A stretch of 56,238 nucleotides of DNA, counting the filler, from Jimgerdemannia flammicorona (Eukaryota), in the NCBI GenBank assembly GCA_003990765.1. It is 3 parts of 3 records of this genome, joined end to end, with 100 filler letters (N's around TTAATTAATTAA, not from the genome) between each part and the next. Parts side by side here need not be neighbours in the genome. Positions count along the whole stretch, not along the records: positions 1 to 18,681 come from RBNJ01002137.1; 2 more parts are not named here. One strand, written 5' to 3'. Shown here piece after piece: positions 1-36,065 of the stretch. Under the pieces are notes generated by a model, which did no database searches, was not told the DNA's origin, and worked only from the letters and a program-made list of their open reading frames with translations. The translations under genes were made by a program, and so were the position numbers. How positions within the stretch are numbered: the stretch's first letter is position 1; every line of letters begins with the position of its first letter.

Positions 1-410
1 GCCCCCAGCCACTGCCCCTCCAGCCCCTATGCTCGCACCCCCAGCCTGGGGACCTCCCCCCTCCCAAGGCTCGCCTTGTCCTTCCCCACAGCAGCACCAG
101 CCCTGTCTCCAGCTGGCCATCCACTCCCCTTCACCTTGTCAGCAAAGCTCAAGGGACCAGCCTTTCCACCAACACCACCTGTCGCCAGTCCTCCTCAAGA
201 GCCCTTACCACCGTTTGACCCTCCAAAGGCCCCCATCTCCAGGCCATAACCCCTCCCCACTTGCTGCCAGCCGAAAGCCCCAGCTCCCCCCAACCCAGTA
301 TGCCTGTCGGAACTCTTGCTTGAAGACATATTGCTAGTACCTTTACTCCTAGTTGTGTCGAGAACTGTTGCTTGAAGTTTTGTGTAACGTGAATTGTACA
401 GGAGAAAGGC
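1..410 (-). mobile_element. 5' end (5'UTR and ORF1 N-terminus) of an L1/Tx1-like LINE running off the left edge
   Basis: Colinear with the 5' end of the LINE at 42960-43360 (GGAGAFGWQQVGRGYGLEMGAFGGS vs GGPGAFSWQNVRRGYGLGMGAFGGS). Shares the terminal motif tgtaacgtgaat..gagaaaggct with 12479-12507. ORF1 ATG at 329. Confidence 0.85.
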
Positions 411-756
411 TGTCAATAAGACCCTCTTCATCCTTGACTTGCTGGGTATAGTGCAAGAAGTTCGGTGAATAGGGTTTCACCTATTTGCTGGTTTAACTTG
501 AGTACTTCTTTCTTTGAATGAAGTTTGTCCCACTTGTTGCAGGTGTGGAGGTCAAATTGTCCTTGTATGTCAGGTTCAATTCTCTCCAGATTGTCAGATG
601 GTTCAGGATAAATTCCAGTTCAGAGGTTGGGCTTTATACCAACTTGTAGGAATTCGCAGAAGGGTTTGTAGCAGGGTGAGGAAGCGTCTTGAAGCAGAAT
701 TGGATTGTAAACCGCTGCTACCAAGTTGTCAGAGGGTTACTTTTTAGGGTGACCAT
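411..756 (-). pseudogene. Degenerate putative Ty3/Gypsy Gag N-terminal extension, cut off by the LINE
   Basis: Minus-strand translation ends ...TELLALYPASQG*, resembling ...TSRLANYPASEGSQ in the Gag N-terminus at ~34730-34770. The similarity is weak and local. Confidence 0.4.
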
Positions 757-1189
757 TATGTAGTTCTGGAAGGGTTTTCTGGAAGTTCTGGATATTCTGG
801 AAGACCATTTTCTTATGGTCAAGATCAATTTCGTATGGAGTACGTCCTCTATGCTTATTGATTTCAAGATCAGGTTGACATCTCAACCAAAGTCCTTTTC
901 TGGACTAGTTCTGGATGTTCAGGATTTTCTGTATTTCAGGAAGTTCAAGAAACTAAGACCAGCTTAGTTGAATTGGCGTATCGCTGCAGACAATACCCAA
1001 TTAGGAAATTTCGTGACGGGGTTAGGAGTAGGACCTAACAGGGAGCAGATTTACTTAAGAGTGGTTTGTGGGTTATGGAATAGATTTATTTGCTATTCAT
1101 GATATTGCTATACTAGGAGTAGTTGTGTAAAGGGATATTGTGGGGAAGTGCTCAGGAGTTGTGTTCGGATTGTTCAAGTCTGAGATTCT

Positions 1190-1400
1190 GAGGTCTGGGG
1201 GAGGGGGTATTTATACTAGTGAGGGGCTATCTAGACTATGCTAGATATGGATGTAGCACTAAGTGCCTTGCTGAGTCGGAATACAGTCATGTAGTACAAG
1301 TGTGATCTGACATGTCAAGAGATCGTCTGACTGCTGAGTCAGTTCACAGTCACGTCGTACAAGGCTAATCTAACTATACTATGACTGCTAGACTATTTAT
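1190..1400 (-). promoter_or_regulatory. LTR U3-like promoter (TATA box and duplicated TGAGTC enhancer-like module)
   Basis: TATAAATA on the minus strand at 1215-1208. Imperfect direct repeat ctgagtc..cagtca.gt.gtacaag at ~1271-1300 and ~1334-1363. Same layout as the TATA region at ~36001-36010 of the large Gypsy element. Confidence 0.5.
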
Positions 1401-1404
1401 AGGT

Positions 1405-2502
1405 TTAGGTACTATCTGGGTAGTCTTCGATAATATCACTATTGATTGCATCATCTCTGATGAAGTAGTCGTCTAGGAATAATGGTTCGCGGATTACTTC
1501 TCCTTGTTGGCTGAGGTAGTAATACATTGGGACTTCATCTCCATCCCACAGGATAGCATCATCTGTTTCATATGCTGGATAAGGTGTTGGTGGGTGAAGG
1601 ATGGGTGTACTGTCTTCACTTTCATCGGATTCGCTGTCTGCATACCTTCTATAGGTTACAGCACTATGAGTCATGGGGTTGTAGTAAGCTGGCGGCTGTG
1701 GTTCAAGTCGCTCATACTCAGGTGGTGGAGTGGTTGGTTTGATCTTGAGGGTTGTCTGAAGGTACAGGTTGTGTTCTCTGGTCTCTTCATTATAGTTGAA
1801 GTAATCGGGGGTAAATGCGGATTGGTATTTGTGCCAGTGGTCATTGTCCCAATAAGTCTCGTATGCAGTTATGAACTGTTGTAAGTTCATCGGCAAGATT
1901 GGCGGGGTGATCAGGATTGGCAGAGATCCTTGGCTAGAGGTCATGTCGGCATCAGAGGGATCATTGTCTTCTGCTTCATCTTCATCGAAGTGGATTATAT
2001 CGTAGATGTCCTTCATGGCATATCCGACTTGAGGCATTTGCAGAATGTGGTCATCAGGGTGCAGGAAGGTTCTGTCTGTGGTTTCGACATACTCGAGGTA
2101 CTTGTGGTGGAGTTCTTGTATCATGTCATCGATTTGGCCATAGGACAGGGTAGCAACCATTTCGCTGGTAGTGACTCGGAGGCGGGGAATAAAGGTGTTG
2201 TACTCATAGAAGAGTTCTCGATGTTTGCGGGCGATGAGCTTCTGGTGTTGAGACATCTGGGTAATGTCTGTATCATGGTGGTGTTCAACCATATCTTCCA
2301 AGAGGCAGCCGATCTGGTAGTAGCTTGAGATTTGTCCAATTCGGTGGGCCTCGCTAAGCATGTTCAGGGTGTTCCATTGGGCTTCCACGAAGTAGAGGGG
2401 TGCCAGGCTATGGATATTCATGAGGGGCAGAGGGGGTGTGGCTCGGTTGACAATGACATTCCATATGTCAGCGCGGATGCGGTTGTAGATCTCAGTGGTC
2501 AT
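1405..2502 (-). CDS. Intact 365-aa orphan protein: predicted helical N-terminal domain and acidic/Pro/Tyr-rich tail; putative retroelement accessory protein
   Basis: Uninterrupted ORF with an A/C-rich leader (CACACAAACATG), an upstream TATA and retained CpGs. A decayed homologue is at 43717-44589. Confidence 0.8.
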   Translation of the reverse strand: MTTEIYNRIRADIWNVIVNRATPPLPLMNIHSLAPLYFVEAQWNTLNMLSEAHRIGQISSYYQIGCLLEDMVEHHHDTDITQMSQHQKLIARKHRELFYEYNTFIPRLRVTTSEMVATLSYGQIDDMIQELHHKYLEYVETTDRTFLHPDDHILQMPQVGYAMKDIYDIIHFDEDEAEDNDPSDADMTSSQGSLPILITPPILPMNLQQFITAYETYWDNDHWHKYQSAFTPDYFNYNEETREHNLYLQTTLKIKPTTPPPEYERLEPQPPAYYNPMTHSAVTYRRYADSESDESEDSTPILHPPTPYPAYETDDAILWDGDEVPMYYYLSQQGEVIREPLFLDDYFIRDDAINSDIIEDYPDST

Positions 2503-2559
2503 GTTTGTGTGTTTGGAAGTTGTGGTTGTTGTTTGTTTTGGTTCTCTGATCCGACGCGT

Positions 2560-2792
2560 CTCGGTGCTCAGTATATATATGCATTTGATCCTGATTGGTA
2601 AGGTTCCGTTTATATAGATCTTGTGTTCCGTGACTTCATATTGACTCAGCTTTGTATGCTGTGACTTCGGTTTGACTCAGCTTCATGATTAAGCAGGTGA
2701 TTTCCAGATTTGTTCAGAGGTCATGTGTAATTTTGGTGGCTTGTTCAGAGGGTGACGTGTAATTTCAGTAGCTTGGAGGTTGTGCACTTACA
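2560..2792 (-). promoter_or_regulatory. Promoter / LTR-like 5' terminus upstream of the 365-aa ORF
   Basis: Minus strand begins TGTAAG at 2792, a typical Gypsy LTR start. Two pairs of ~31-bp tandem repeats (2630-2683, 2710-2774), two TGACTCA sites (AP-1/Gcn4-type; 2642, 2673) and TATA-like boxes at ~2572-2580 and ~2608-2615. Confidence 0.55.
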
Positions 2793-2799
2793 GCTATAT

Positions 2800-4112
2800 T
2801 TCTCTTGCTAGATAGAAATTAATCCTAATATTACTGAATGTCAAAGTTATGATATCTGGCAAATTATATAGACCTTCTGGCATAAGTGGTAAAGAGATTG
2901 TTGAAGATAGCTAAGGACTGAATTTGGTCCAGAAGGTACAGCCAGATAAGTTGAGAGATCTTGATAGCTTTGATAGATAGGCAAGGTTTAGGTCTAGTGG
3001 ACCTCTCAAAGTGATTGTATTGTCTTAGTACTTAGTAGTTAAAGAGAGTTATTAAGTTACAGAGTTATAAGTAGATACCTTTGATATAAAAGAACTGAGA
3101 GAAAAGATTCTCTCTACAAGAATCTCTGGTAATTTATTATTGATAGTTGAACTATAAGATAGTAAACACTTGTAGTATTAAAGATTCTAGTAGGGGGTTG
3201 AAGAGGGGGCTCACTGAATTGATCTATGATAGTGAGATATAAGGGAGAGATATAATGAAAATCTGCTATATAAAGATAGAAAAGGCTTCTATTAGTAGTT
3301 TACCAATATTGGATTTTGATATTAGTACTAATTTTGAGTGTCAATAGGAGAGAAACAGGATCTGTAACCATTGGGCTGATAATTGGCAGACATTAGTAAG
3401 ATATAGGACTGAGCTAGAGTCTGGTCTTAGTATACTAAGGTGTAGCAGTGGTTTTCTCTAAGGTTCTGGATAGTGTGGTGACATATCTTACAAAGAAATA
3501 TCATATTGAACTTTTAATCAGATCACTTAGTAGATGGAGGGGTTTTTGAGTATAAGGATTTCTACAATTTTAGATAGGTGAAGAGTATTATTCAGATACT
3601 AGAATATTGGTTTGGAGAGTGCAGGATACTTAGTGACTTCTGGGTGAGAGTTGAGAGTTATCTGGGAGTGTGACAGAGAGATAGTAGAGAGGGAGAGAGA
3701 TGAGATAGCTTGAAGGAGCAGTTGGTGAGTTATATCAGTAATAAGTAACTTACTATTAGATGAGTATTAGCAATATAGAGGTTATTGACTAGATACTAGC
3801 AGTGTGTATTTGAGGATAGAAGACAGATGGTTTTCTGAAAAGGATAATAAGGTGAGAAGAATTAATAGTAGATATTCAGTCAGACTGGTGAAAGGCGTGG
3901 GGTTCTCAAGGGGGTCACTGTTGATGTCTGATGGAAGAGATATGTGAGGAGAGTGGTGGGTGGATTGAAATAGTTAATAATATAGTTGTTTTTAAGAGAG
4001 AGAGAGTAGGAGATAAGGAGTGTATTGGGGTAGGTTAGAGTGAGATTGGGTTGGGGCTACTAGTGTATTATGAGGATCTTATAATTATTATAGATTAGTT
4101 AATAAAGAGACC
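2800..4112 (+). mobile_element. Heavily mutated, 5'-truncated LINE copy (3' part of ORF2 and 3'UTR)
   Basis: Translates to SKL*YLANYIDL..., LYCLST**LKRVIKL and QILEYWFGECRILSDFW, matching PKLWYLAYHLDF / LHCLRAWWLRRAVEL / QIPEHWLGECEVLGDFW of better-preserved copies. The 3'UTR matches the reverse complement of 18231-18330. Confidence 0.85.
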
Positions 4113-5911
4113 TAGGATGATAACCTTCATCTTTTTATTAAATTGTTTATAGTTGGTCTTCTTGATTCAGTACTTCTTTTCTCTATAGTTGATTTGAGTA
4201 CCTATTGATAAATATCAATAACTATATTAATTTCTTTCATTCATCTAGTTGATACTAAGGATCATTTTATAAGTAATAGCTTTGATAACAACAGTCTTCA
4301 GAATAGAGAACTAGATATATTCAAGTATGATAGTAGTATTTCATACTTCTTCTAGAGGTTGAGTTTAGGGTTTTAACTTCTGTTCTCTAATATCTCTATA
4401 TAGATATATACTGATCTATCTTTTGGCAGCCTAGATAGTAGTTGGTACAGATTTATGTTATAGGTTTGGAACTTGAACAGTGCTGTATCTGATAGTTCTC
4501 AATAGCTATTTTTAATACCAGGAGATGTCAATTGCAATAATTGCAGGAGAGGAACTTCTATCTTAGCTTCTTGAATATTTTTTCAGACTTTTTTATAGAT
4601 GTCTTGAGGCATAGTCTTTAAGGTATACTTCTTCTTAGATTTCGAAATTGTTGGCTCATATTCTTCCTGCTCTATCTCTTTATCTGTAAAGAGTAGACTT
4701 TCTTTATGAATCATAGTTTCAGAAATAAAAGATAAAGAAGACTTGGGAGATATTTCAAAATACTTCTCCTCATCTTCACTATTTTCCTTCTAAATAGTTT
4801 TTCTATCTACTCTTCTAGATGGTTACCAAATTGCTCTTTTCTTCTCTTCAGTAAGATAAATTGTTTTCTTAGAGATGACATTGACTGGATATAGGTCTAG
4901 ATAACATAGTCTTCACTATTACTTTCTTCAAAGTCTTTTATAGTATAGGCTTTAGTCATTTTATACTCAGTTGCATTCTTTTGATTTGGTAATTCTGAGT
5001 CTCTTTGGTCACCTCTTCTATTGCCACATTCTATACTATAATATTTAAACTGTCCATAGCATAAGTATTGGACTTGAGCTCTAGCTCAGAGTTAATACCT
5101 TCTCTCTTCTTATAACTGATAGTTTCTATTGTCTCTAGGTAAGTAGTCTTGGTTCCCTCATAGTATATAACCCTCTATTATATATCTTATAGGTAGCTCT
5201 AATTATCATATAGTAAGTTTTTTAATTTGCCCAATAAACCTGTCTAGTTTGGAGATGAGGTCTTGGATTTTGTTCTTGTTCTTCTTCTATTTCTTTATAG
5301 ATTTCTTCTCTCTTAAGATACCTTAGAGAATTTCTTGGAGAGTCTTGATCAAGAGGTCTTTTTTGTCTTTTTCATTATTATTTCAAGGATTACTACTTGA
5401 CATTAAATAATCCTTAGACTGTATATAGTTTTTATCAAGTTTCTTAATATCAAGAGTATAGATTTACTGAGTAATATTGAGAGAAATTCTATATATAAAG
5501 TTCATTGGACTAATAATATCTTAATTTGTATTACTGAATCTAGTAGTATATATTCTCTTCTGAATTCTTATAAAGTATACTTCTAGAGATTATCTAAGAA
5601 TCACCTTCATTCTTATAATAGATTTCTGGACTTTGTAATGAGTTTCTATTTCTATATACTTTTTATAAGTCAGTAAGTGATGGCTTCATCCTGATCTACA
5701 TAGTAGTGTATATTTACTATAGCTTGTCCTAGGTCAGTGTTTGGATTATTTAATATTCTAATGAAGATTTATTTAACTGATTATCTCAATTATATCTTGA
5801 AGATGACAATTTGTCTTATGAGAGCAAGTTTCTTCAAAACTGCAATTTCTTCAAAAATATCTGGAATTTCCTTGAGTCTTCTTGGAGGTATTCTGCAAAT
5901 ATAGATAGTGA

Positions 5912-6314
5912 TAGTACTCTCAATAAATTGAATCAAATTGAATTTGACCCAAATTAGATTAGATTTAATTGAATCAAAGATCTAATTCATTTTGATTTAA
6001 ATTAAATAAAGGCTAATTTGATTTGAAATTCAAATTGAAGCATATTTTTCAAATATAATAACTAGATAATATTACATTCAATATTAAATTCCTTTATATA
6101 AATGGAATCTAACAAGCTAAAGATAGTTAAATTTTGAAATATATTTATTAAGTTATTATATTTTGAAAAATAGAGTTTGATTTAAACCCTCAATTTAATT
6201 TGAATTTTATTTGATTCAAACTTTATTCAAATTGAAAAATCCCAAATTAAATTCAATTTAAATGAATCTCATTTTGATTCAATTCAAATTAATTTAATCT
6301 ATTTGAGAGTTCTA
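5912..6314. mobile_element. 403-bp AT-rich MITE, hAT-like
   Basis: Imperfect ~32-bp TIRs starting TAG(T/A)ACTCTCAA. The 8-bp flanks GATAGTGA (5904-5911) and GGTAGTAG (6315-6322) both derive from GGTAGTGG by G>A. Removing the element restores the gag frame. Confidence 0.8.
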
Positions 6315-6580
6315 GGTAGTAGTACTGTTATTTCATCATTACTATCTCCTAGTTCTTCCTCAGTTCATAAATCTGTTTTATTTGTTAAAGATATACTAAG
6401 TCTGGTTGAGCTGCTGAGAGTTGAGAGAGTTGAAGAATATGTACTTGGTCTTTAGAGTACTGGAATTTCTCTTGTTATTCTCAAATATACTATACTTAGA
6501 ACTTCTGCTAGTCCAGATATAGATGAAATAAGTAGGACTTCTAGAGAGAATGAAAATCTGATGATATGGTCTTTAAGTTC

Positions 6581-6650
<70 letters not shown>

Positions 6651-6729
6651 GTCCCTTGTACTCCGTCTTTATTACCAGTCTATGAATAAGTATACAATAT
6701 CACCACCCACTATCCGATCCCCACCAGGG

Positions 6730-9700
6730 GGCCCCTCTCCACCTCTTCATATATAAAGACCACCCTCTTACTAATAACTCCAACTCTCCCACCACTCTGA
6801 CCACAGATTTTCACCACTAAGTGGCGCCTCTGACCCCTGTAGCCCCCAACCAAGCCACCAGCCTGTCAAGGTATCCTCCATAAGGCACTGCCACCATGAT
6901 AACCTGCTCCCCAAGCTCTGTCGCCTCTCCTCCTCAAATACAAATAGCCAGTAACTGGCCAGCCCAACCCAAATAGCCAATGCCCAGCCTAGAGTAATCC
7001 ACTCCTCCCCTACCCCTTCTATCAATCGATCCCTCAGGTCCTCCCACTGCCCCCATATCTCATCACCCCTATGTCTTACCCCCAAGCAGTCCCCAATGGC
7101 CTGCCAAAAGTCTCCCAACACCTCACACTCCCCTAGCCAATGTTCTGGTATCTGTACAAATCCCCCTTCCTGCTCTACATTATGGCACTCCTCACAGTCT
7201 AAGCAGCCCCCTACAACAAGGTGTCCTGAGCGGAAGTTGAGCATCACATTCCTCCTCAGCATGCGCCACTAGACCACCCAGTACTTTGGCGGCATCCAAT
7301 TTTTCACTGCAGCACTCCAGGTCCAAACCCCATTCCAGTCCCACTCCTCACCAATTCCAACTCCTTGCCAACCACCAGGCCACAGATCCTGGCCTGGTCC
7401 CCTTTGGCATTCGATTCCATCACCAATGTTGAACTCAAGTAAAGGCACACCTCCCAGAAGAATGCCATCCCATCTCTACATCCCCAGGCCCCAAGCCCTC
7501 TCCCCCTCATCCCCTCGCCAGTGAATACCAATACAGTGTGCTCCCTCAGCTATCCCCCACCAAAAGCCTTTATATCTCAGTTGCACAATGTTCTGAAGCC
7601 CAACTAATGAAAGAAGATCACCAGTCAAGCCTCTTGGTGATGTCTGCCTCTCCCATACCTTCTGCAGCAGGGGAACCCAGCCCCCACCCCGCAGCTCCAC
7701 TGCCCTTCTAAGCCACCATGCCCTCAAGCAGTGTAGTCTTTTGGGGAAGTCTACCAGCCCAAGACCACTTCTCAACACCGGTAGGGACAAAGTCTCCCAG
7801 CCAATCTGACTCCATCTGCTAGCCCAAATCCATCTCTTAGCCACCTTCACAAATCTCTTCACCACCCAGACTGGGAAGTCCAGATGATAAGCCAAGTACC
7901 ACAGCTTTGGCAGCCAGTATACATTCAAAATCGAGATCCTTCCTGCCAGAGAGAAGTGTCTTCCCCCCCAACCCCACAGGTCCTCCTCCCAAATTCCAAT
8001 CCTCCACTCCCACCACAGTCTGGGCAGAACAGACCCATAGACCAACAAATAGATGCCCAAGTACTGCACTGCCTCTCCGATGGGGACAATTGTTCCAATA
8101 ACTTCTCCACCCACCAGGCCATTGCCCAGCACCATTGTTTCGTACTTGTGACAATTCAACTTTGCCCCAGAGTTCACCTCATACCACTCCACTGTCTTCC
8201 TGAGCTTCTCGACATCCGCAGTCACTCCCAAACCAACCACCATGTCATCTGCAAAGGCTCCAACTTTCCAGCCAACTCTATAGATAGAGAGCCCCACTAT
8301 CCTCTGCCGAATCCTATCCATGAGGGGTTCCAAGGAAAGAGCATACAAAATGGGGGACAGTGGGTCCCCCTGGGGCACTCCCCTACCCAGAGGGAATGCT
8401 ACCCCTCTATACCTATTACACACAAGCGCAGCCCTACTCCTTTCCAGTAGGCTGACCATCGCTGACTGAAATGGGACTGGAACCCCAATTCTATCTAATA
8501 CTTTTGCCAGCCAGACATGCTGCACCCAGTCATAAGCCTTCTTCTGGTCCAAGAAGACAAGATGTCCATCCAGTCCACAGGCTCAAGCACCTTCAATAAC
8601 TCCATGTACCCAGGCCGTGCCATCTCTAATAAGCCAACCCCCTATGAAGCCCCTCTGCTCAACACTCACAATTTGCTGGGCTACCTTCTGTAGCCTTGTG
8701 ACCACCACCATAGTCACCAACTTTCTGTCCATATCTAGTAACATTATCAGCTGCCAGTTCTTCCAATCCTCTTGCCTTCCTTTGTTCTTATAAAGCAGTG
8801 TCACCAGCCCAAGATCCTGCTCCCCCACCCATCTTCCTGACTGCAATATAGAGTCGCACAGTGCTGTCAACTCCCCCAACATGCCTGGGACTCCAACCAT
8901 TTGCTTCCAGAAGTCCCAGGGGAGGCCATCCTCCCCAGGCGCCATACCCAAGGCTGTCGCGGCAAGAACCTGGTGAATCTCGTCCTCCTTTTCAGGCATC
9001 ACCAGATCACCTAATCCCTCAGCATGTGGTGGGTGCCAATCTTCTAATGTTTGGTCAATAGCTGTAGCATCTGCCCCACCCTCCTCCTCACTCCACAATC
9101 CACTCCATCATGCCTTCAGCATTCCAAGGATATCCTGTACACCATGTACTAGTATATCATCCAAGTCAAGTACCCCTTCCCACCGCTGCTGTACCCTTCT
9201 CGCTCGAAGTATCCTTATGAGAAACTTGGAAGGCCTCTCCCCTTCCTCCAGCCCCTGCCAACAAAGCCATGCCACCAGGCCTTGTATCCTTGACTCTTCC
9301 TCTTCCTGCAGCACCTGTTGTAGTTCCCCAACCTCCATCTTCACCCTCGTTATTCTCCAATCCTCTTCTCCCTCCGCTACTGCCAGTCTTGCCCACTCCT
9401 CCAGGAGCCTGGCCAATCTAGTAGAAGCCCAATGCACTCTCTGCCTATGTTGCTTCCCAGCCACTCTGCCAGCCTCGCTCCAAAACATCCCGGCCATCTC
9501 TTTTATCCTCATCTACCGAACCCCAATTGCGGCCCCTTCCTACTGCCAATTCGCCACCTTCAGCTGAATGACTTTTGTCCACTCCTCTGACCAAGACTCA
9601 TCATCCAACAAGGAGGAATTTAGGCGCCAATGTCCAGGCCCATCACCACTTCCCCCAAAACACCCCTGTCCCAAAAGCCCCCAGTGATCTGACCATGGAC

Positions 9701-10364
9701 ACCATTCTACCTCTAGCACCTTCCAAACATTGCAGCCCAAGCAGTCAGCCATCAGAATCCAGTCAATACTTGTCCCCAGACCTCCAGCCCAATGTGTATA
9801 TACCCTCCTGTCCCCCCAGTACTCCCTACCAGCATCCACCAGTGCCCCTAGCCTTTCAACCTCCTCCCACACTGCCAGCCCCCCACTCCTGCTCTCAGCA
9901 CCCTGTCCTCCATCAGTTCTATCCAGCCATACATCCCGAACCATATTGAAATCTCCTCCAAGCATATCCAACCCAGCTTCAGCAAGGATCCCACTCTCCA
10001 GGAGCCCTTTCACCCAATCCACATACTCCCCCTGCACAGCAGGGCAGTAACAGGAGCCAACTGTAACTGGCTCCCAACCTGCATGAATCCACTCACCCCA
10101 GACCAGTCTCTCCCCCCAGCTCCTCACATCTCTTATCTCTCCTCTGCCTTTCCAAACCAGAATCCCGACCTTGCTATTCCAAATCACTATGCCACCCCAT
10201 TCCTTAGTCCATTCCATCCTATCAGAATCATCCTTGCACCTGACATCCTGCAAGAGGAAGAGATCAGCCTCCAATCCCTTCAGCCAAATAAAAATGTTCC
10301 TGCATCTAACTGTGCCCCTTAGCCCATTCACATTCAAAGAAAAAATGTTGGTTGTACTGTTCAT
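6730..10364 (-). pseudogene. LINE ORF2: APE endonuclease, reverse transcriptase, C-terminal CCHC
   Basis: Motifs IFSLNVNGL, LLQD, GGDFN, IDWIL and SDH (APE); PGEDG, DQKKAYD, GVPQGDPLSP and FADD (RT); CEEC...EHWLGEC. Several in-frame stops. Confidence 0.92.
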
Positions 10365-10394
10365 AATGAAATACGGTTTGTACTCAATCAATCT

Positions 10395-12425
10395 CTACTG
10401 CTCCATGCCCATCTCCTCCTGTGCCTTGTCCAGATTATGTTCAGCCATCACCTCCTCCTCTTCAGCCCTCTGAGGCTCCAGTCCAGCCAACAGCTCATTC
10501 ATCTCCTCATCAGCCTTCTCCTCAAACTCCTCTCTGTACTCAATGCAAGCCTCTTGCCAAAGCTGCAACCCATGACGCCTGTTCCAACAGTACTCAGCCT
10601 TCTCTCCAGCAACAACTGCCAACTCTGCCTCCCTCTCCTTGTCCACCTCATACCCTTTCTCCTCCAGATACACTGCGAGAATTTCCGCCTTCAGTGCCAC
10701 CACCACTCCTTCCCCCTGCAAAATTCTCATCCAGTGCTTGTCACCCATCCCATGCAGGTCCACCTCCCCCAGCTCTTCTGCTGCCAGGTTATTCATCATC
10801 CGGTATATCCAAAGTAGGTTCCCCACCTCCTTCCCACCAGGGGTCACCAGCCTCCCTCTGTCCAGCATTGTGGTGTCAGCTCCAGTACTCGCATCCTCAT
10901 TCCACACCTCCAGGACATCCACCAGTTCCTCCTCCCTGGCCACCACTACTTGGTCCCCATCCATTACCTCTGGAATGCTGAATTTCACCTGCTGTGTCCC
11001 CAACATCATCACGTCCTCCCCAGACTTGCACCTGGAAGCTGGGCCATACCTGATAAGAGGGGAAGGGGTGGGGGAGTTCTCACAGACTTCATCCCAAACC
11101 TCCAAGGTGCCATCTGCATATGGGTCGCTAATCTTCACCTTGTTTGCCTTCCCTGTCTTTGCCCCATTGTTCCTACTCCTCTCACCAGCCCAGACACTCG
11201 CTCCAGCCTCTTCTGCACCTGTCTTCATGCTCACATCCTTCAGTGGTCCACCCCCCAGTTTAGCCAGCAGATCCTTCTGCCTCTTCCACCCCTGAGCCCT
11301 TTCCCACTACACTTTGTCCACCCGAATCCGCTTTCCATCCACTACCTCCAGATGCATTGACTCCTCAAAAGTCTTCCAGGCCTTAGCTCGTCATTCCACA
11401 GTCCCATCCAGCTCCTCCAGTGCTTCCAATAAATCTTCCTCCTCTTCTTCACTTCCTTTTACCCATGTCACCTTACACAGGAATGCTCCCCAAACCATCA
11501 CCAAAGGCCAGTCCCTCATCTTCCCAGTAGCCTCTTTTCCAGCCAGCCGAATCCTCACATCCACATCCCCAGTCCTGAGCATGGTTCCTTCCCAGACTCT
11601 GAATCCGATATCCACTACCTCTCCATACTCTGCCATGACATCCTCCACTCTCTTCCTCATCTCTATTGCCGTCACCATGGGAACTCCTTTCACCAGCAGT
11701 TGGACCACCCTCAGATCCCATTTCAAACACCTTGCCATCAGAACACACACCTCCCCAACCACCAACCCAACCTTCAGTGCCTCTTCTAGTGGTTCAACCT
11801 CCTCAAAACCCACCTCCACCCCCTCTAGCCCCTTCAGAAACTTCACCAAAGCCACTCCTGCCACCTGCGTAGCAATAAGCCCCAACACCATTTTCACCAT
11901 CACTGCTAAGCCCCGGAAGCATAGCATGACTGCAAATGCTAAGATCGACTTCTTGAGTAATGGAGCCACCACCAGTCCCATTACACCATCTGCCAGGTCC
12001 CCAGGCCTCGTGCCCTTTCCACTGCTCAACTCACCATCAGCAGTCCCATCTAGATTTTTTTCCAGATCACCTGTCACACCCCCATCAGCAGTCCCTGCCC
12101 CAGCCGCTACCCCCCCAGCTCCCTCCCTATGGCCCTCCAGAGAGGAACCCCCAAGAGGTTGCTGCCTGGTAGCCTTCACCAGTACCTTCCCCCCTCTCAG
12201 CCAGCTCTCCAGTCCAGCTCCCTGCCGACCCCCCTTCACCTTCTCCGCAAAGCTCACCCTATCAGACCCTTGACCTCCAGCTCTGCCCCCTCCTCCACTG
12301 CAGCCTCCTGCCAGCAGGCCCCTCATACTTTCCCCCAAGCCGGGGCCTCTCCCCACTTGCTGCCATTCAAATGTGTCAGGGCCACCCTGCCCAGTACACA
12401 CCTCCGGATGATCATTGCTCGCCAT
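10395..12425 (-). pseudogene. LINE ORF1 (Gly-rich N-terminus, RRM-like core, acidic coiled-coil-like C-terminus)
   Basis: ORF-track pieces 11391-12425 and 10395-11234 are in the same frame. The core LLVKGVP...MAEYGEVVDIGF...TGDVDVRIRL resembles L1/Tx1 ORF1 RRM regions. Confidence 0.8.
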
Positions 12426-12762
12426 GATACTAGTAGCTTTTCTCCAGAAACTGTGTCGAAAGTGTTGCCAACAGATTGTGTAACCTGAATGTTATCAGAG
12501 AAAGGGCTGGTCTTTAATTTCTATTCTAAGTTTGTTAAAATTTTAGATAGAATTTTCTACGTTATCTGACTATATCTGATCTTTTAGTGATAAGTCTGTT
12601 AGTACTTCTGAAGTATTTATAAGTTAGATATACTCTTAGTAATTAGACTAGTGCTGATTGAGGATTCTGTATCCTTTTAATACTAGAAAGTTGATAAGTC
12701 TTAAATTAATTACTTCTTTTCTTGTCCAAATACTAATGATGATTCATTCTTCTGTTATAACT

Positions 12763-13500
12763 AGAAGTAGAGGAAGAGAGCATAATAGAAGTCCAAGAAG
12801 GAAAAAGGGCAAAGCCCAAGACAGAATTGAAGGAGATAAAGAGAAAGCAAGATATGAGAAAGATAAGAAATAAGAATAGATAAAGAATAGAGCAGAAATT
12901 ATATCTATTATTTATTGCTATGTAAAAGTATAGTCCTTATATATAAAATGAAGTCTAAAAAAGAAATAATATGCTACAATATAGAGATAACTGAAGTAGA
13001 AGAGAAAGAGGGTACAATGAAAGTCTGAGAAGATAGAGGGGTAAAGCCTGAGTCAAGGTCAAAGGAGATAAAGGAAAGGTGATATATGAGAAAGATGAGA
13101 AATAAGAATAGACAAAGAATAGAGTAGAAATTACATCTATTGTTTATTGCCATACAAAAGTATAGTCCTTATATATAAATATGAAGTCTCAAAAAGAAAC
13201 AATACACTACAATATAGAAATAACTGAATTAAGAACCTCATATTATATAAAGATAAAAGAGAGCCAATTCTAAAGTGAGAATAAAAATCAGAAACAAACA
13301 AATTCAAATTAAGATTAAAAAAACATCTACAGACCCTAGTGGAGTAAGTAAGAGTGAGGAGTAGAGGTCAAGTTAAGTAAGTCACAGTGAGTCCAAGATG
13401 AATCCAAGGGGTCAAAGGCTATTGAAGGGAGTAAAGTGAAGACTAAAGACCCTGGGGCAAGAGTGAGACCCTAGAGAAGACCAGAATGTTTTTTAATCTT
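12763..13500. repeat. PLE 3' pseudo-LTR with a ~235-bp tandem duplication
   Basis: Units 12763-12996 and 12997-13228 share gagaaagat.agaaataagaataga.aaagaataga...aaaagtatagtccttatatataaa...ataactgaa. 12997-13500 recurs at ~16610-17120. Confidence 0.85.
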
Positions 13501-14980: not shown

Positions 14981-16807
14981 TGATCAATTTAAGCCCAGTA
15001 TATATGATATAGCCCAAAATCAAGCAAGAGAAAGTATAATCAGAAGAGGTCAGCTAGTAAGCCATGTTGAGAAATACACTATTTAAAGAGATATTGATAA
15101 GGAAGACCTACTTGCTGGAAATGAAATAGTGAGAGAGCAACTCAGTACAATCTTTAAAGAAGATTGCAAGATCAAGTATATGATGGAAGCACTTAGGATG
15201 AGCTGGGACAACAAAGAAAAACTGGAAATAAGTTACTGGAAAAACAAAATAAGAACTCAATGAAAGTGTAAAGGTTTGAAGAGGAGAAAGAAGACAGTTA
15301 GTCTAAGAGAAAAGAGGAGATAGAAGAGCTTTAGAAGAAGAATAAATCTAAAAGTTCAGGACAAGTAACTGGAAAAAACAAAGAAGAGACTATATGAGTA
15401 ATTACTCAGGGTATATCAGAAGTAATAACAGGATACATGATGAGATGAAAATACCAGAGGAGAACTAAGCTAGAGAGAAGTTTAACTGTGAGAGGACTTC
15501 TCCTTCTCTTAGACTTTTTATGAGAGAGATATAGTGGATGAGTATGAGTAAACCCAATCTAAATATCAGACCTTGTAGTTACAGTCCTTTGTGCAGCCCT
15601 TATATTCAGGGACGTATAGAGAGTGAGATCTGAAAGAGATAGCAGAAGAAGAGAAGGGAGAGAAGAAGCATGATAGTACCTTAGAGGAGAAGGAGAGGGT
15701 AGTAGAAGCAACTAGAGAAGGAATACCACTATATGAACAAGTGGCTTTAGCAGAATGTCAGTAGGTCTGTTTGAGGTAGTCAGAGCAGATGAAGTATAAC
15801 CAAGAGTCTGTAAGTTAGATACCAAGAGTGTAACTATGTTTGAAGTTAGAGAGAGACTTCACTACTAGTAAGAAGGAGTGGAAAGAGACTGAAGAGGTCT
15901 TAAAGAGAGAGGTTGAGGATTTGGTACCTTTGGTGGCAGTAGTGGTAATGGAGTAAATATCTGCATAAATGGTTGTATAGACTTTAGCTCAAATGGTCTC
16001 AGAAACTGAGTTCTCAGGAGAGGCCAGAGAGGAAGCTATAGTAGTGGTACAAGTAGTAGTAGTAGTTTGAGAAACCTCTGCCTCATGGAGGCAAGCTAGA
16101 AAGGAGTAGCCAGTGAGCAAGAAGTAATGAATAGCTTTGATATCAATAGTAGCAGAAGAGACTTCATCAGTTATAAAACCACAGAAGGAGACAGCATCAG
16201 AGAGATAAGAGGAGGTAAGAGTCAAGAAGGTGACACAAGTTAGATAGAACTAGATGGAGGTGGTGGTAGTGACATTATATATCATATCAGTAATAGCAGT
16301 CTTGGTAGCAATAGAGGCAGTATAGATCTCCTTAGAGAAGACCTGGTGACACTTCTCAGTAAGAATAGGAAACTTGATAGCAGGTGAAGTAACAGAATTA
16401 ATGTTATAGCAAAGATGAGTCTCCTTAGTAGAGAGCAAGAGAACTGAGCAGAACTGAGTAAGAAGAAGGTAGCCCAACAAGTGAAGGTTGAGGGAGAGAG
16501 AGAGGATGGCAGAAGATATATAAGTATCAAAGAAGATATCGACAGAAGTGAAGCAGAGGGAAAGGAAAAAGGACTGTATCATTAGTGGGGGCCCTGGAGA
16601 CAGAAGTGGTAGCAGTAGAGAAACAGGGTATAATAAGATCTTGAGAAGAAAGAGGGGCAAAGTCCAAGCCAAGATTAAAGAAGATAGAGAGAACATAAGA
16701 TATATATGAAAAAGGTGAGAAATAAGAAGGAACAAAGAACAGGGCAGAATTTGCATCCATTGTTTATTACTATACAAAAGTATAGTTCTTATATATAAAT
16801 ATAAAGT

Positions 16808-17243
16808 TCCAAAAAGGAATAATATACCACAATATACAAATAACTGAATTAAGAACCTCATATTATATGAGATAAGGAAAGAGCCAATCCTGCAGTAAGA
16901 ATAAAAATCAGAAACAAACAAATCCAAATCAAGATTAAAAAAACATCTGCAGACCCCAGAGGGGTAAGTGAGAGCAAGGGGTAGAGTTCAAGTGAAGCAA
17001 GCCACAGTGAGCCTGAGGTAAAGCTGAGAGGCTGAAGGCAGTGGAGGGTAGCAAAGTGAAGACTGAAGACCCTAGAGTAAGCACAAGACCCTGGAGGGGG
17101 CCAGGATGTTTTTTTAATCTCATTTTGGATTTGTTTATTTCCGATTTTTATTCTCACTCTGGGATTGGCTCTTCTCTTATCTTTGCATGACATGAGGTTC
17201 TTAATTCAGTTATCTACATGTTGTGGCGCGTGATTCATTTTTG
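16808..17243. repeat. ~140-bp inverted repeat with a ~155-bp spacer at the PLE 5' end
   Basis: The reverse complement of 17104-17243 matches 16808-16948 (ataactgaattaagaacctca...gagccaatcc...gaataaaaatc.gaaa.aaacaaatccaaa...gattaaaaaaacatc). Confidence 0.9.
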
Positions 17244-18781: not shown

Positions 18782-19360
18782 GAAAGACCAATTTATCCAA
18801 CACCATCGCCACCCGCCCACTACTCTGTTCACAGATCCCTTCTACCAGACAGTGACGCTGCCCACCTTGTGGTCCCCATCCAACCCACCACCCCATCAGC
18901 AGATCCGCCACCAACTCCTCCCATCTCAACAACTTCTCCTGTATCCCTATCTGTCTCCCTTCCTCAAAAACAAAGAGCCAATGACCAGCCAACCCCACCC
19001 ACACTGCCACAACCCATCCTACAGTAAGCCACCTATTGCCCACACCACCCACAAGTCTAGATTCTAAATCTTCCCAGCGACCTCTCTCCCCTTTCAACCC
19101 CTAGCTGGTCTCCTATAGCTATCCAAAAGTCCCCCAGCACCTCACATTCCCCCAGCCAATGTTCCGGTGTTTGTACAAATTCCCCAGCTTGCCCAACATT
19201 ATAACACTCCTCACAATCCAGCTGACCACCATCCACCAGATGCCCAGCATGGAAGTTCAACATAACATTCCTCTGCAATATTCGCCACCACACTACCTAG
19301 AATTTGGGAGGAAGCCATTGCCGCACCTCGGTACTCCAGGACCAGATCCTTGCCCAATCT
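18782..19360 (-). mobile_element. LINE ORF2 3' fragment (CCHC region)
   Basis: WWRILQRNVMLNFH...CEECYN...QTPEHWLGECEVLGDFW. Confidence 0.9.
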
Positions 19361-19740
19361 GAAGATATCCTATCTCTGATCTCTAGCCTTAATGATAGTG
19401 ATGAAGGTAAAGCCCCCATGATCCTGAACATTCTGCTCTAAGTTCCTTATAATATCTAAATCTTCTGGAATTCTTTTCTTATATAACTGAAATCTACTGG
19501 TATCCTGAACTTGTGCAATTATTTATACAGGCACTTGAATTTATTCTTACAACCAAAGTTTTCTGTATTCTAGTATTTTATTTGATTATTGAAATTTATA
19601 TTTAGCTTTATATCTTAGTAACCATTGATTTATATTTTGTATAAATATCCCTCTTTAAAATAAAGTAAGTTTTCTCAGTTCTCTTAGTTTACTTATACTC
19701 AATTCTATACAAGCAATCTAAGAGATAATAAGACAATTTA
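19360..19740 (+). pseudogene. C-terminus and 3' flank of a further copy of the accessory-ORF cassette
   Basis: ...DSDEGKAPMILNILL* (stop 19439-19441) and the downstream DNA match the reverse complement of 43362-43790 (SDDEDEAPMVLNILL*; attgaaatttatatttagctttatat; caagcaatctaa.agataataagaca). Confidence 0.8.
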
Positions 19741-26757: not shown

Positions 26758-29700
26758 TGTTGTAATGAATAGAAGATTATATATTACTGATAAATAATAT
26801 AAACTAATGAAATGGCATGTGGCATTAAGTCACATACCCATATATCAAGTTGCCATTCCAATACTCCTACTCAAGGAGATATATATGCCAAAACAAAAAA
26901 AAAAAAAATAAACTATATCTAAAAAAAAAAAAAAAAAAAAAAATCAACAATATCTAAAAAAAAAAAAAAAAATGCAAACTAGAATAAAAAAGCAATACAA
27001 TATATGCCCAAAAACTAGAACTGCATAAAACCCAGAATTATAACTATCTAGGAATTTTTGCAGATTAAAAAGTATTCTGAAATATCTGAAATACCAATAA
27101 AAAAAATGTAATATTTGTAATCTACTCATAGATGAGAGATATATAATATGAGACTTTTAAGAGTCTGAAAAATGTCCAATTAGCTACTAGACTTTATCAG
27201 ATGAATGTATACTTCTGCTTAATCCAATGCTGTTGATGTTGTTGGCAGGTGTCATTATTAGATACAGATGTTATTCCTGTTTAATATAGTTGTCATTATA
27301 ATTAATATATCTTTAAAATATATGATGTTGTCAGCACTGGCTATTATTGTTCCTAGTATATATCATATGCTGTATTATACTGAAATTAGTTAGCAAGACA
27401 TTATCATTATCATTGACTATATTAGTATATTTGATAGATATTGTGAGCAGTACTCACTTTGTTAGTAGTACTATAGTAGTTCCCTCTTCTGAACTATTGT
27501 CTGTCATTATAGTTGCTTCAAATCTTAGTTGATTATACTTACATTGAGCTTGAGTTTGGATTTATCTCTATTGTTATTATTGTTGTCTGTACTTTTGACC
27601 TTGGTATTTCTGCCTCATTAGTCTTGTTGGTCTCTTCTATGACCTTGTAGTCTTGTTGCTGACCTCTTCGGTCTTCTCTATGGTCTTGTCTACATTTTGG
27701 ACCTTTTTGGCATTTCTCTCATCTATGCTTTTGACTTTGGTATTTCTATATTGTCAGTTTTATTGGTCTTTTCCATAATCTTGTCAGTCTTATTATTGAT
27801 CTCGTTAGCCTTCTCTGTAGTCTTATCCATACTTTGGACCTTATTAGTATTTATCTTATCTACACTTTTGACCTTGTTATCCATACTGGCTTCATTTGCT
27901 GTATCTGCATTTTTGAGTTAGATTTTCATTCATACACATCGACCTTATTGCTGATTACATATACTGGCTTTAATAGACTATTCAGACCTCTTAAATAGAT
28001 GCTAGTTCTTCTTATGTTATATACAAAATAAGGTTCTTCCCATTTTGGCTCCAGTTTGGCAGCAAAGTTTATTTCAATCCTGCTTCTTCTAACTAGTACT
28101 AGATCTCTAATCTTGATCTTCTGATCTTTTTTGCTTTTGATCATAGTACTTCTTTTATCTTTCTTGAGCATTGATAATCTGGACTTAGGCTTCATTACAT
28201 AACTGATCTGTCTTCTTGAGGAGATCTCTGAGGTTCTTATAGTCATCAGTTTTGGTCCTCTTGAAAAATATCATTTGAAATGGCTTTTTTTTAATAGAGA
28301 CAGCAGGGGTGTTTTAAATTTTTCATAGGATCTCAGGTAGCAGAGGTCCTAGTTGGTAGGATTGACTCAGATAAGATGGTCTGGTTCATTCATTCTGTTA
28401 TACCATTGATATGAGAGTGATATGATATAGTCTATTTGAGATAAATCTTGTAAATTCAGACATAACTTATAATTATGTTATTGATGAATTCTGTGTCTCA
28501 GTCAGAGATATGTTCTTCTAGGGGTTTATATCTGAGTGTGAGTCTATAGAGGAGGTCAACATTAGTCAGAGTATCTGTGATTTCTATTAGAAAGGCTCCA
28601 GACCACTTGGTCAGATATTCTACAAATACTAGGATATACTTATTCCTTCTTGGTATAACTGGTAGAGGTCTAATTATATCTACTCTCTATCTTTGGAAGA
28701 TGTTGTCTGGTGGTATTATTGGTTGTAATGGTACTTGATAATTCTTCTTCCCTTGATACTTCAGACAGATGTTACATTTTTTGAGTGTGTCTCAGATTTG
28801 TATTCTGAGATTGGGCCAATATTAGTATATTGTTTGCAGTTTTTCTTTTATATTCACCTGTCCTTGGTGGACTTTCTGGTGTTCTTTTCAGATAAGATCT
28901 TCTTGTGCTTTGAGTTTTGTTTAGAATGTAGTTCCTTAGTACACCCTTCTTCTGGTTTATTAGGATTGGTGAGAAAGTACTTTAATATTGTTGTGAGCTT
29001 TCCCTGCCTTGTGGATGATGGTGATTTTGTAATCTTGAAGAATTAGAATCCAGCAGACCAGGATTTCAGTATGTTCCATACAGTTGAATAGCTATTTGAG
29101 AGCAGCATAGTCAGTTATTAGAGTGAATCTCTTTCTAATGAGATAATGCTTAAATAAGATGATAGCCCATATGACTGCAAGGTATTCAAATTTGGTCCTG
29201 CCATAATTGATCTACTGCTGGTAGGCAGCTCAGCTTATATAAGCTATCACATAGTATTTTGGTTCAGTCTTTCTAGGGCCAGAACTACTCTCAGACCATC
29301 TTTAGAAGTATCTATATACAAGATGAATGGCTTCTGTATATTGGAGCACACAATGATAGATACTATAATTATATAGTGCTTGAGTTCCTTGAAGACTAGT
29401 GCTTGTGAATCTGTCTATTTGTATGGTACTTCTTTCTTGAGAAGGATTCAGATTGAGGTAGCAATATTGCCAAAGTTCTTAATAAATCTTCTATAGTAGG
29501 ACATTAGTATCAGGAATGATAGTATTTCCTTAGGGTCTTGGGTACTGGTCAGTTGTTGATCTTCTTGGTTTTCTTTTGATCTGTATGGATTTCTTCTTTT
29601 GAAACTATGAATCTAAGGAATTCAAGTTTCTGTTTCCCAAAGTAGCATTTTATGACATTGAGTCTCAGATAGTTCCTGCAGATAAGCTTGAAAAATTCTT

Positions 29701-30787
29701 CTAGGTAGTACAGGTGTTTCTCAAAATTTTCTGAATAGATATTGGAATCATCCATATATACAATCAGACAGTAGTAGATTAATGAACTATTGACTGAGTT
29801 CATCATTCTCTAGAAAGTGGAAGGTATATTGCAAAGTCCATAGGATATTCAGAGATACTCAAACAGTTTTCCTAAAGCAAGAAAGGCTGTCTTCTGAATA
29901 TATTTGGGATCTATGGAGATCTCATGGAATTCTGTGAAAAGGTCTATACTGCTGAAGTATCTGGTATCTTATAACTAGTCCAAGAGGTCATTGATTCTAG
30001 GCAAAGGATAGACATCCTTCTAGATGACTAAATTGAGTATTCTGTAGTCTACATAGAGTCTCCATCCTCCTTTCTTAGGTACAAAAGTATTGGGCTGGCA
30101 CAAGGGCTGATAGAGGGTCGGATGACTCCATTGTCTAAGAGTTCTTAAATGTACCCCTTTTCAAATGTCTTTAGGTGATGGGGTATGCTATAGAGTTTCT
30201 GCTAGATGGGTGTTGCATTTTCTATATTTATGCTGTGGTAATATGATGGGTTGTATAGTAGGTTGCCACAATTAGTAGTAAAGATATCTTGATATTTATT
30301 GAGAAGTTCTACTAGTTGTTGTCATTATAGGGGTATCAATTCTTCTTCAATATTGGTGGAAGGCTTCACTGTCTCCTGGGTCACAGAGGGACCTTTCCTT
30401 TCTTATGGGACCTTTTGCTGTTTCCTGATAAGTTTAGCTCATAAACTTCTCTATAAGTTCAATTGAGAAAAGGCATCAGATGTCCTATGATGGTTCTATG
30501 ATGGTTCCTTTTGGCAAAATGATACTTTCTCAGCTCTGGTTGGTTGCTTGGGAGTATACAGGGTTCATCTTGTCAGAGAATATATATCTCTCAATTTCCA
30601 GATAATTGATATTTTCATTGAGTTTGAAGAAGAGGTTTCTTGAATAAGGTGGAGCAAAGATTTCAAAAGTGGTTTGCTCTCCTGGTTCCAAGATGAGGTT
30701 CTTGTGTAGTCTAATTGGTTGGTGGTATACTTACTGAGGGGTATCCTTTTTGAAGTAGTTGACCTGAAGGAGATGTACTTTCTTCTT

Positions 30788-31191
30788 ATCTGAGCTTTCA
30801 AATCCTTTAGTTTGTCTTATTCCTTTGGTCAGTTCAGGGACTTGTAATTGTGGTGTCTTGACTTCCATAAAGACCACCTGTATAATCTTCTGTTCTTGAA
30901 GAATTCAGTGTCATTCTATCTCACTGTTATACAAGATGATCTTGATTTCGCCTATATATCCTGGGTCTATGGTTTCTTCTTGTCCATTACTCCTTATATG
31001 GTAAGCCCAGATCTTGAGAGCAGTTGGATGTAAGTTCCTTCAGGTATCTGCATGGCTGCTCCTGTCCAAAACACTAGTATTCTTCCAGGTTTGATAGATT
31101 CATCCTCCAAACTACAGAGAACATACACTATGTCTTTCTGGTGGACTTTGGTCAGGGGTTTGGCCTTGAGAAAGGGCAGCAACATCTTTAC
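30788..31191 (-). pseudogene. Trimeric dUTPase domain upstream of RT
   Basis: IKPGRILVFWTGAAMQIPEGTYIQLLSRSGL...TIDPGYIGEIKIILYN...QKIIQ...RQTKGFESSD. Confidence 0.88.
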
Positions 31192-34100: not shown

Positions 34101-36065
34101 AGTCAGGTTGGTATTACATTGATGTCAGCTCTCAGATCTGAGTTTATATCATTCATTACTTGGATTAAAATTCCTTTGGCTGGTTCTCTTAGTTGGGCCT
34201 TATAGTAGATATCTTTTCTTTCAGGAGTGAGATTCTTCAGGACTGCAATTCCTTCAATTCTATTAAGGAATTCTCTTGAATCTTCATCTGGGTATCCTGC
34301 AAAGGTTGGCAATGGAGTGGTCATTTCATTGTTACTGTCTTCTAGTTCTGGTTCTGATTCTGGTACTGATTCCAATTCCAATTCTGATTCTGATTCACAT
34401 TCTGAATTGTTACTGAAGTTCAGGACACTTGGGTATCCTGAGGATAGTGTTAGAGTTCTTGGGCAAGGTGGAATGAGTCTGGGTATCCTTGAAGGGGCTA
34501 CTTCATGGTCTTCTTATTCTGTGATAGCTAGTGGTAGAGGTTCAATGAGTGAAATTGGTAGAACTTCTGCAGGTAATCAGGCTTGTTTAATGGAGTCTCC
34601 AAGTTGTTATGCAAGCTTGTCAAAGACTCTGATAGGGCTGCCTGTATAATCTGGTTAATCTGGTTGGTCTAGTAATAAGTCTGTTGGTACTGGCTGGGGA
34701 TTCTGTGCTATGCTGGCTTCCTATTGGGATCCTTCTGATGCTGGGTAGTTGGCAAGTCTTGAAGTGTTTACTTCTCTTCCTGTCCAAATGCTGGTGATGA
34801 CTTGTTCTCCTGTGGTAGCAGAGATTGGTGTTGTATCAAATGTATCCAGTTTGACTGTTGGTCCTTATGAGCAAAAGAGTCACATTGATTTTGAAATCTT
34901 CCCAGTTGAGCTCCCAAATGTAACATGCCTGACTCAATGGAGGCAAATTACAAGATTGGGGGTTGATGTAGTTTGGCTTGAGCCCTCAGTTACTTTTCAA
35001 AAAGCTACAAAATGTTCTAAGATTCTTTGTTGGTGTTTAGTGGTATAATAGTCAATCTGGATACAATGGTCGATTTCCTTATTGGGATGGTTCTTGGGTG
35101 TAGCAGCGATTTCGTATGACGGTTTCTGTGTAGCGCGGCATTTTCCTTATGTGGGATGATCTGGTAATTTAGCGGTTTCCTTCTTGAGTGGCAGCGATCT
35201 CTCTATGTAGCGCGACAATCTCTAAAAGTATGCAATTTCTGGCATGACGATCTTGTGTAACACGACGATCTCCAAAAGTATGTGATTTCTGGAATGACAA
35301 TCTTGTATAGCGCGACGATCTCTGTGTAGCTCGAGGGGATTCCTTATGTAGGCGATTTCTGCATGATGATCTTGATTACAAAAGTATGCGATTTCTGCGG
35401 GTAACACGATTTGGCATGGATTCTCCTGAATCGGCATAATGGCAGATAACTTAGATAACTTGGATGATGCAGACTCTTCCTGAATCAGCTCTTCTGGGAA
35501 TATCAGATAACTTGATAAATTGGATAACTCCGATGACGTGGATAATTCCAATAACTCGGATAACTCGGACGGCATGGATAACTCGGATGAAAGATGATTT
35601 GATAGCTCGGATGCGGATTCTTGGCAAGTTACATCAAGACTGGCTTCGTTTGCACGGAGTTATGTCGATAGACTGGCTCTACTGCGAAGTTGCATCAGGA
35701 GACGGGCTTGTGGCAGGATTCCTTATATCGGGCTCTCTGGGAATGGCGGACTTCTTGATCTTCAGGCTTATCTGGCAAGCGGACCAAAATGTAGCAGCTT
35801 ATTCCTTAAGCAGTGGATTCTTCAAAAGACGGCAAAGTTCTTTACTTGAACTTGGCAGCAAACTCAGGCTTTGTATTGGAAAGTGGACCAGAGTGGAAAG
35901 TAAGCTCACAATCTCCTAGCAGTGGCTGTAGAGTTTCTCTCAGAGTGTGGTAGGCAGACTTGCCTTTTGCTTTGAGGTTTATTCACTCTTGTCTCTGGGA
36001 TATTTTATACAGTTGTGGTTGCTATCTGGTTGCTATGTTGCTAATTATAGATTGCTATTTATGAC

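Follow-up and report, generated by a model that had tools for sequence, protein, structure and literature searches.

Protein genes inside the long terminal repeats (LTRs) of retroelements are very rare. Cassandra elements, which are terminal-repeat retrotransposons in miniature (TRIM), carry a 5S RNA gene in each LTR. Phrase searches of the literature for protein genes inside LTRs returned sag of mouse mammary tumour virus (MMTV) as the sole clear case, although these searches matched wording and not meaning, so that the absence of others is not shown. The sag superantigen has been called an "LTR-encoded ERV protein" (ERV, endogenous retrovirus) and is the product of an open reading frame (ORF) of the 3' LTR; Sag is a membrane protein of type II and belongs to a vertebrate retrovirus (PMC11998498). 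LTR retrotransposons of bdelloid rotifers have captured extra ORFs, which are reported to be lineage-restricted and either accessory or without known function (PMC5408684). We analysed a stretch of 56,238 nucleotides of Jimgerdemannia flammicorona DNA (GenBank assembly GCA_003990765.1), called the window here, which joins three parts of three records and begins with RBNJ01002137.1. On the minus strand at 1405-2502 lies an ORF that an initial annotation, made from the sequence alone, had proposed as an accessory gene of a retroelement. The ORF is real and is borne by a transposable element (TE), and we interpret it, with moderate confidence, as a self-promoted accessory gene that lies within the LTR of a young LTR retrotransposon present in many copies.

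The expectation of a long, intact ORF at this position was borne out. The product has 365 aa and the frame, 423 codons from stop to stop, tops the 35 window frames of at least 150 codons; the next longest (368 and 366 codons) are both pieces of long interspersed nuclear elements (LINEs). When the 2,066-bp block that holds the ORF was shuffled, frames of at least 365 codons arose in 0 of 3000 shuffles, and the longest had 259 codons. The accompanying statement that every gag, pol and ORF2 of the window is broken was slightly too strong, as one LINE ORF1 (11391-12491) has an uninterrupted frame of 366 codons. The ORF had also been said to retain CpG, and it does: its CpG observed/expected ratio (o/e) is 0.59 and that of the preceding 290 bp is 0.69, compared with 0.01-0.03 for the window's old LINE and gypsy copies.

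Window positions 1-7000 were aligned, at 80% likeness, with contigs from four public runs of three studies (X1-X4; three soil metagenomes and one coded organism). Related contigs, 80-99% alike, covered about 470-2808 in all four runs, and a variant at a single ORF position was carried by up to 48 different contigs in X1, 17 in X2, 4 in X3 and 13 in X4. Over the whole 7-kb stretch, the likeness classes of X1 held 709/1292/1778/617. The ORF block is therefore repeated and dispersed, as expected of an LTR, and the earlier view of the ORF as one member of a repeated family is upheld. Such multiplicity is much more readily reconciled with a dispersed repeat than with a gene present once, and several related organisms could contribute to it. 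Contig cover was almost nil at 2809-6000, summed depth was higher at 703-1404 than in the ORF, and the leader of the element was lower. As contig depth cannot rank parts and holes prove nothing, no copy numbers or ratios of LTR to internal sequence were drawn from these values. The window itself holds no other copy of the ORF-bearing element, and protein and alignment scans of metagenome, viral and genome contig collections returned no related locus. Two 18-mers from the LTR ends were also looked for in viral contigs; one had 0 matches and the other 2 (L001 and L002), which showed no further likeness to the window and were dismissed as chance.

An orphan host gene, present once and lying among transposons by chance, would agree with an ORF that is intact, retains CpG and has only two relatives in protein libraries. 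It does not agree with dozens of distinct contigs per position within single runs, nor with the LTR hallmarks at both ends of the ORF's block. We regard this explanation as highly improbable.

The ends of the block at 727-2792 carry those hallmarks. Read on the minus strand, it starts with TGTAAG at 2792 (TG at 2792/2791) and ends in GACA, with CA at 728/727; the plus strand reads TGTCAG from 727 and closes with CTTACA at 2792. The window has C at position 730, where all 30 contigs of X1, X2 and X4 have A (X3 does not), and this majority base gives a perfect 6-bp inverted repeat, TGTAAG...CTTACA. TG...CA termini with a short inverted repeat are those of an LTR. Contig ends fall on the same borders. 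Four X2 contigs depart from the window exactly past 2792 and share one sequence there (agreement 0.89), and one X3 contig departs exactly at 727. On its minus strand, the X2 flank closes with 13 purines in a row, AAGAAGGGGAGAG, one base ahead of the TG, as would a polypurine tract that adjoins a 3' LTR; the tract is seen in these other copies and not in the window.

Just past the terminal CA follows the 12-mer TGGTAGCAGCGG, which has the form of a primer-binding site. When up to 2 mismatches are allowed, the window contains it 9 times, compared with 1.63 +/- 1.17 in shuffled sequence, and 0 of 100 shuffles reached 9. It may resemble the complement of the acceptor end of an initiator tRNA with an A1:U72 pair; a tRNA search of the window returned 0 genes, and Rfam 0 matches. 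The inverted TG/CA termini, the purine tract of the other copies and the primer-binding-like site together lead us to regard 727-2792 as an LTR that holds the ORF.

The claim that an LTR retroelement carries the ORF was thus supported, by the hallmarks at the block ends and by the repetition in contigs. It had been placed just downstream of an LTR-like terminus with TGAGTCA and TATA motifs; the motifs are present, as a putative internal promoter in front of the ORF, but by the ends described above the ORF lies inside the LTR. The ORF does not have the properties of a Gag gene, being upstream of the primer-binding-like site, without a Pfam domain and net acidic in its product. We also considered that 2503-2792 and 727-1404 might be the two LTRs of an element with a gag-like ORF between them, and rejected this arrangement because the two segments have no mutual blastn similarity (word size 7) and no TGG primer site follows 2503.

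Variants of the 12-mer with 1-2 mismatches lie, among other places, at 16607-16618, 28335-28346, 34813-34824 and 52200-52211 on the plus strand. Several LTR families of the window may share one tRNA primer, and some of the variants look like products of CpG decay.

The layout of the block, read from its motifs, resembles that of a gene: two TGAGTCA sites, a TATA box, an ATG, a stop and a single AATAAA follow one another (Table 1). Four of the window's 11 TGASTCA sites fall in these 2.07 kb, and the ATG at 2502 has A at -3, with the stop codon at 1405. From this layout we infer two transcripts and the borders of U3, R and U5. The TGAGTCA pair and the TATATAA box (2679-2610) would start an mRNA of ~1.5 kb that carries the ORF and ends at the AATAAA (1090-1085), and the second TATA (1215-1209) would start the genomic RNA of the element. 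With genomic RNA starting there, the ORF would lie in U3. Every LTR of the family, paired or solo, would then be a self-contained gene. That each LTR is a complete RNA polymerase II gene, with solo LTRs continuing to supply an acidic activator-like or anti-silencing protein to the surviving copies, is a speculative extension that we consider rather unlikely as it stands.

The ORF product contains 63 D+E and 22 K+R residues, 29 Tyr and 29 Pro, and no hydrophobic span was noticed in it by eye. It matched 0 Pfam-A families at E up to 1, and a profile search of PDB sequences returned 0 matches at E up to 10; the best score in the ESM Atlas was 0.79, below the useful level. Among 1.84 billion representative proteins, a full HMMER search picked out two relatives, each a metagenome fragment: P0002 (128 aa), with 93% identity to residues 1-128, and P0001 (247 aa), with 66% identity to residues 115-364. 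Further protein searches, for near and for shorter sequences, added nothing to these two. A structure prediction with AlphaFold2, a check suggested with the initial annotation, was run on a 3-row alignment and gave a mean predicted local distance difference test (pLDDT) of 32.5, with residues 3-141 modelled as five helices and the remainder largely unstructured. We take this model as a mere hint of a helical N-terminal part.

A DNA-binding-like helical domain followed by an acidic tail had been suggested for this protein, with transactivation or anti-silencing as possible roles. The N-terminal domain is itself net acidic (15 D+E and 10 K+R), and direct DNA binding is not favoured because this part is not basic. 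Aromatic residues stand beside runs of D/E, for example around residues 166-185 and 310-360; aromatic-rich acidic stretches of this kind resemble acidic activation regions. Our guess, held with low confidence, is a trans-acting, acidic regulator or adaptor that serves the element. Such a product would act in trans, aiding expression of the element or its escape from the decay linked to CpG methylation in the host.

Three lines of evidence, each weak, bear on constraint. In a neutral simulation to the 66% identity of P0001, using the observed variant spectrum, the frame stayed free of stops over 247 codons in 9 of 1000 runs; this test is biased, as protein libraries take in open frames only. 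Half of the listed variant places in the ORF (10/20) were synonymous, with an expected share of 0.30 and a binomial probability of 0.048; these 20 places are the best-supported ones, and 750 further rows exist. The 20 include a stop at codon 42 (window 2379), which a minority of contigs carry, with a support of 179/794 depth units in X1 and 12.2/12.2 in X4. Part of the ORF family is therefore already inactivated.

These values also bear on whether the ORF is a passenger without a role for the element, either a captured host gene or retrogene that brought its own promoter or a frame still open because the copies are young. The protein, domain and structure-library searches gave no relative of known function, the ORF has a putative TATA promoter of its own, constraint is weakly signalled (p 0.048 on 20 chosen places) and a stop variant is in circulation, all of which suit a passenger. 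Chance does not explain the length of the frame, as the shuffles showed, and at 66% identity the frame remains unbroken for 247 aa, with an excess of synonymous changes among the variants. We judge a passenger improbable.

Beyond the bias of the stop-codon test and the stop variant, several observations count against an LTR-embedded gene. The window contains neither a second LTR nor a target-site duplication nor gag-pol of the element, which exits behind the LINE. The end support consists of four contigs at 2792, all from one run, and one contig at 727, among the loose ends listed (362 further ones exist); the deepest run, X1, has no shared loose end at 2792 among those listed. Contigs also break at 1396-1425, where records 17 and 18 of X3 overlap, so that the ORF part and 727-1404 may not always travel together and U3 may be modular among subfamilies. 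The reading of TGGTAGCAGCGG as a primer-binding site draws on form, recurrence and a presumed likeness to an initiator tRNA end, and no search result, from Pfam and PDB to the Atlas and the structure model, bears on function.

The break at 1396-1425 suggests another arrangement, in which the LTR is short (~640-700 bp, from ~1400 to 727) and the ORF is the last internal gene before the 3' LTR, akin to additional ORFs known from many LTR retrotransposons and from complex retroviruses; in that case the copy in the window would be tandem or rearranged, with a truncation at 2792. A TGTACG is present at 1361, and TATA, TGACTCA and AATAAA all lie inside 727-1404, which would be sufficient for an LTR alone. 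Yet the primer-binding-like 12-mer right after the block marks a 5' LTR, and only a tandem array would put an ORF upstream of that site. The sequence before 1361-1425 lacks a purine tract, whereas one stands before 2792 in other copies. At 2792 the contigs break precisely at a TG that forms an inverted repeat with the opposite end of the block, and truncation there would have to be by chance. Finally, 0 of the 10 joints listed skip the ORF. We consider the short LTR unlikely, and retain the 2,066-bp LTR with the ORF inside it.

The initial annotation had further described a decayed homologue of the ORF at 43717-44589, and had placed both in one accessory-gene family whose members each lie just downstream of an LTR terminus. 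Collinear motifs at similar spacing in one frame, among them a shared D-[IL]-I-x-F-..-DEDE-A stretch, speak for this relationship. It failed the formal tests. A tblastn search of the window with the ORF (E up to 10) returned the self-match only. The Smith-Waterman score of the whole ORF against the claimed frame was 40, compared with 36.1 +/- 5.3 for shuffled sequence, and was reached in 66 of 300 shuffles. Residues 1-185 scored 39 under BLOSUM62 (shuffled 31.2 +/- 4.5; reached in 40/500, z = 1.5-1.7) and 51 with cheaper gaps (reached in 35/500). Only BLOSUM45 gave a high value, with a score of 72 compared with 43.9 +/- 6.9 (1/500 shuffles, z = 4.1), relative to shuffles of the 43717-44589 stretch alone. 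Because that stretch had been chosen by eye from 56 kb in six frames, all 864 six-frame pieces were scanned; three unrelated places scored 75-78 under BLOSUM45, as high as the candidate or higher, and 35 pieces reached at least 39 under BLOSUM62. No DNA similarity was found between the ORF and 43717-44589 by blastn (word size 7, E up to 1). Given the failed alignments, the higher-scoring unrelated places and the lack of DNA similarity, homology was rejected, and a single family of this kind is very doubtful.

The stretch at 43717-44589 appears to belong elsewhere. Its frame runs antisense over a plus-strand CA-TT-TGGTAGCAGTGG at 43880-43895, the probable junction of LTR end and primer-like site of another element; TGGTAGCAGTGG (43884-43895, plus strand) is one CpG-to-TpG change away from the primer-binding-like word beside the ORF block. 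The homologue's C-terminus and 3' flank had been reported to recur at 19360-19740. The repeat is genuine (43363-43777 with 19735-19375, 73-75% identity, E 2.8e-41); its identification as the C-terminus of a homologue did not hold. The segments at 43363-43895 (plus) and 19375-19735 (minus) are probably the end part of another, older LTR that closes with CA at 43880-43881. A LINE 5' end cuts this plus-strand LTR at 43363, and 19375-19735 is a second partial copy.

Table 1. Features of the ORF-bearing block and its immediate flanks, in window coordinates
Feature	Position	Strand	Basis or remark
LINE 5' end (context only); Gly-rich ORF1 start at ~335	1..409	minus	79% identical to 42966-43358; shared terminus CCTTTCTC
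Leader of the LTR element	410..711	minus	covered by related contigs; cut by the LINE at 409
Primer-binding-site-like 12-mer TGGTAGCAGCGG	712..723	minus	begins 3 nt past the terminal CA of the LTR
Proposed LTR, 2,066 bp; 5' LTR of an element running to lower coordinates	727..2792	minus	TG/CA ends, contig ends
AATAAA, the sole one on the sense strand of 400-2800; putative poly(A) signal for ORF mRNA and element RNA	1085..1090	minus	predicted
Second TATA (TATAAAT); putative genomic-RNA promoter, U3/R border ~30 nt downstream	1209..1215	minus	predicted
TGACTCA, upstream of the second TATA	1335..1341	minus	sequence
ORF, 365 aa, ATG to TAA	1405..2502	minus	acidic; predicted helical N-terminal ~140 aa, Pro/Tyr/Asp-rich remainder
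TATATAA box; putative ORF promoter, 108 nt upstream of the ATG	2610..2616	minus	sequence
Duplicated enhancer-like unit: two TGAGTCA (2679-2673, 2648-2642), each followed by GAAGTCAC	2642..2679	minus	sequence
Old 5'-truncated LINE fragment flanking the LTR start	2793..~4030	plus	CpG o/e 0.03; 2801-2899 matches 7952-7852; 3926-4013 matches LINE 3' end

The LINEs on either side of the block give some indication of its history. Of 6 aligned LINE copies, 5 have the 5' terminus in common, whereas each copy is preceded by unrelated sequence. As the LINE starts at 409, the ORF therefore lies outside it, and an assignment of the ORF to the LINE 5' untranslated region (UTR) was dropped. CpG o/e is 0.41-0.69 in the LTR block and 0.03 in the flanking LINE fragment, so the LTR came later than that fragment; the LINE at 1-409 (CpG o/e 0.26) cuts the leader of the element and is therefore later still. 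This age order fits insertion of the LTR beside or into the old LINE fragment.

Across the window, old TE copies have a CpG o/e of 0.01-0.03 with normal GpC (0.6-1.0) and TpA that is not raised, and younger units have a CpG o/e of 0.15-0.69. The loss of CpG looks driven by methylation rather than by repeat-induced point mutation.

The LINE family, which has an apurinic/apyrimidinic endonuclease (APE) and reverse transcriptase (RT), is represented at 6571-12505 (minus), 37631-43358 (minus), 44822 to ~51000 (plus) and 51089-56238 (plus), with two copies head to head around 43363-44822. Its coding strand is strongly G-rich (GC skew ~0.45), its ORF1 start is Gly-rich and a poly(A) tail lies at 6571-6656. 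A decayed Ty3/gypsy element at ~28700-34300 (minus) has a dUTPase (E 7.4e-05), RT, RNase H and an integrase zinc domain, and 4111-5899 (minus) resembles the gag-protease part of this element, as a further decayed copy. A tandem duplication (12757-12998 and 12987-13231, 81%) and a dispersed copy (12995-13499 and 16611-17120, 80%) were also observed, at 12757-13499 and 16610-17120; the stretch in which they lie is strongly A- and G-rich on the plus strand and has no Pfam match.

At present the ORF stands as an orphan TE-borne gene with a well-defined anatomy. If our interpretation is correct, this is a retrotransposon with a self-promoted gene in every LTR, solo LTRs can be coding, and the locus would offer a handle on accessory functions that LTR elements evolve under strong decay linked to CpG methylation. 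Under the more speculative extension given above, the LTR would be a vehicle for dispersing the gene of a retrotransposon-encoded regulator, in a host that otherwise erases transposon CpGs almost completely.

Compared with known systems, the ORF shares with the 5'-UTR ORFs of L1 (ORF0-type) the strand of a LINE ORF1 and a place ~1 kb ahead of its start, but differs in lying outside the LINE unit. The extra ORFs of LTR retrotransposons of the bdelloid type are reportedly internal, between the LTRs, unlike the ORF at 1405-2502, which would lie inside one. With Cassandra it would share an independently transcribed gene embedded in a retrotransposon LTR; the gene of Cassandra is an RNA gene of RNA polymerase III, whereas the ORF is a protein-coding unit with signals of the RNA polymerase II type. 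From MMTV Sag, the ORF product differs in having no sequence relation to it (0 Pfam families, 0 PDB profile matches), in being acidic, in its soil-eukaryote host and in the promoter, which would be a TATA promoter of its own within the LTR. What the ORF, on our interpretation, and sag have in common is a protein ORF that lies within the LTR and hence in every LTR copy, which makes MMTV sag the nearest known arrangement.

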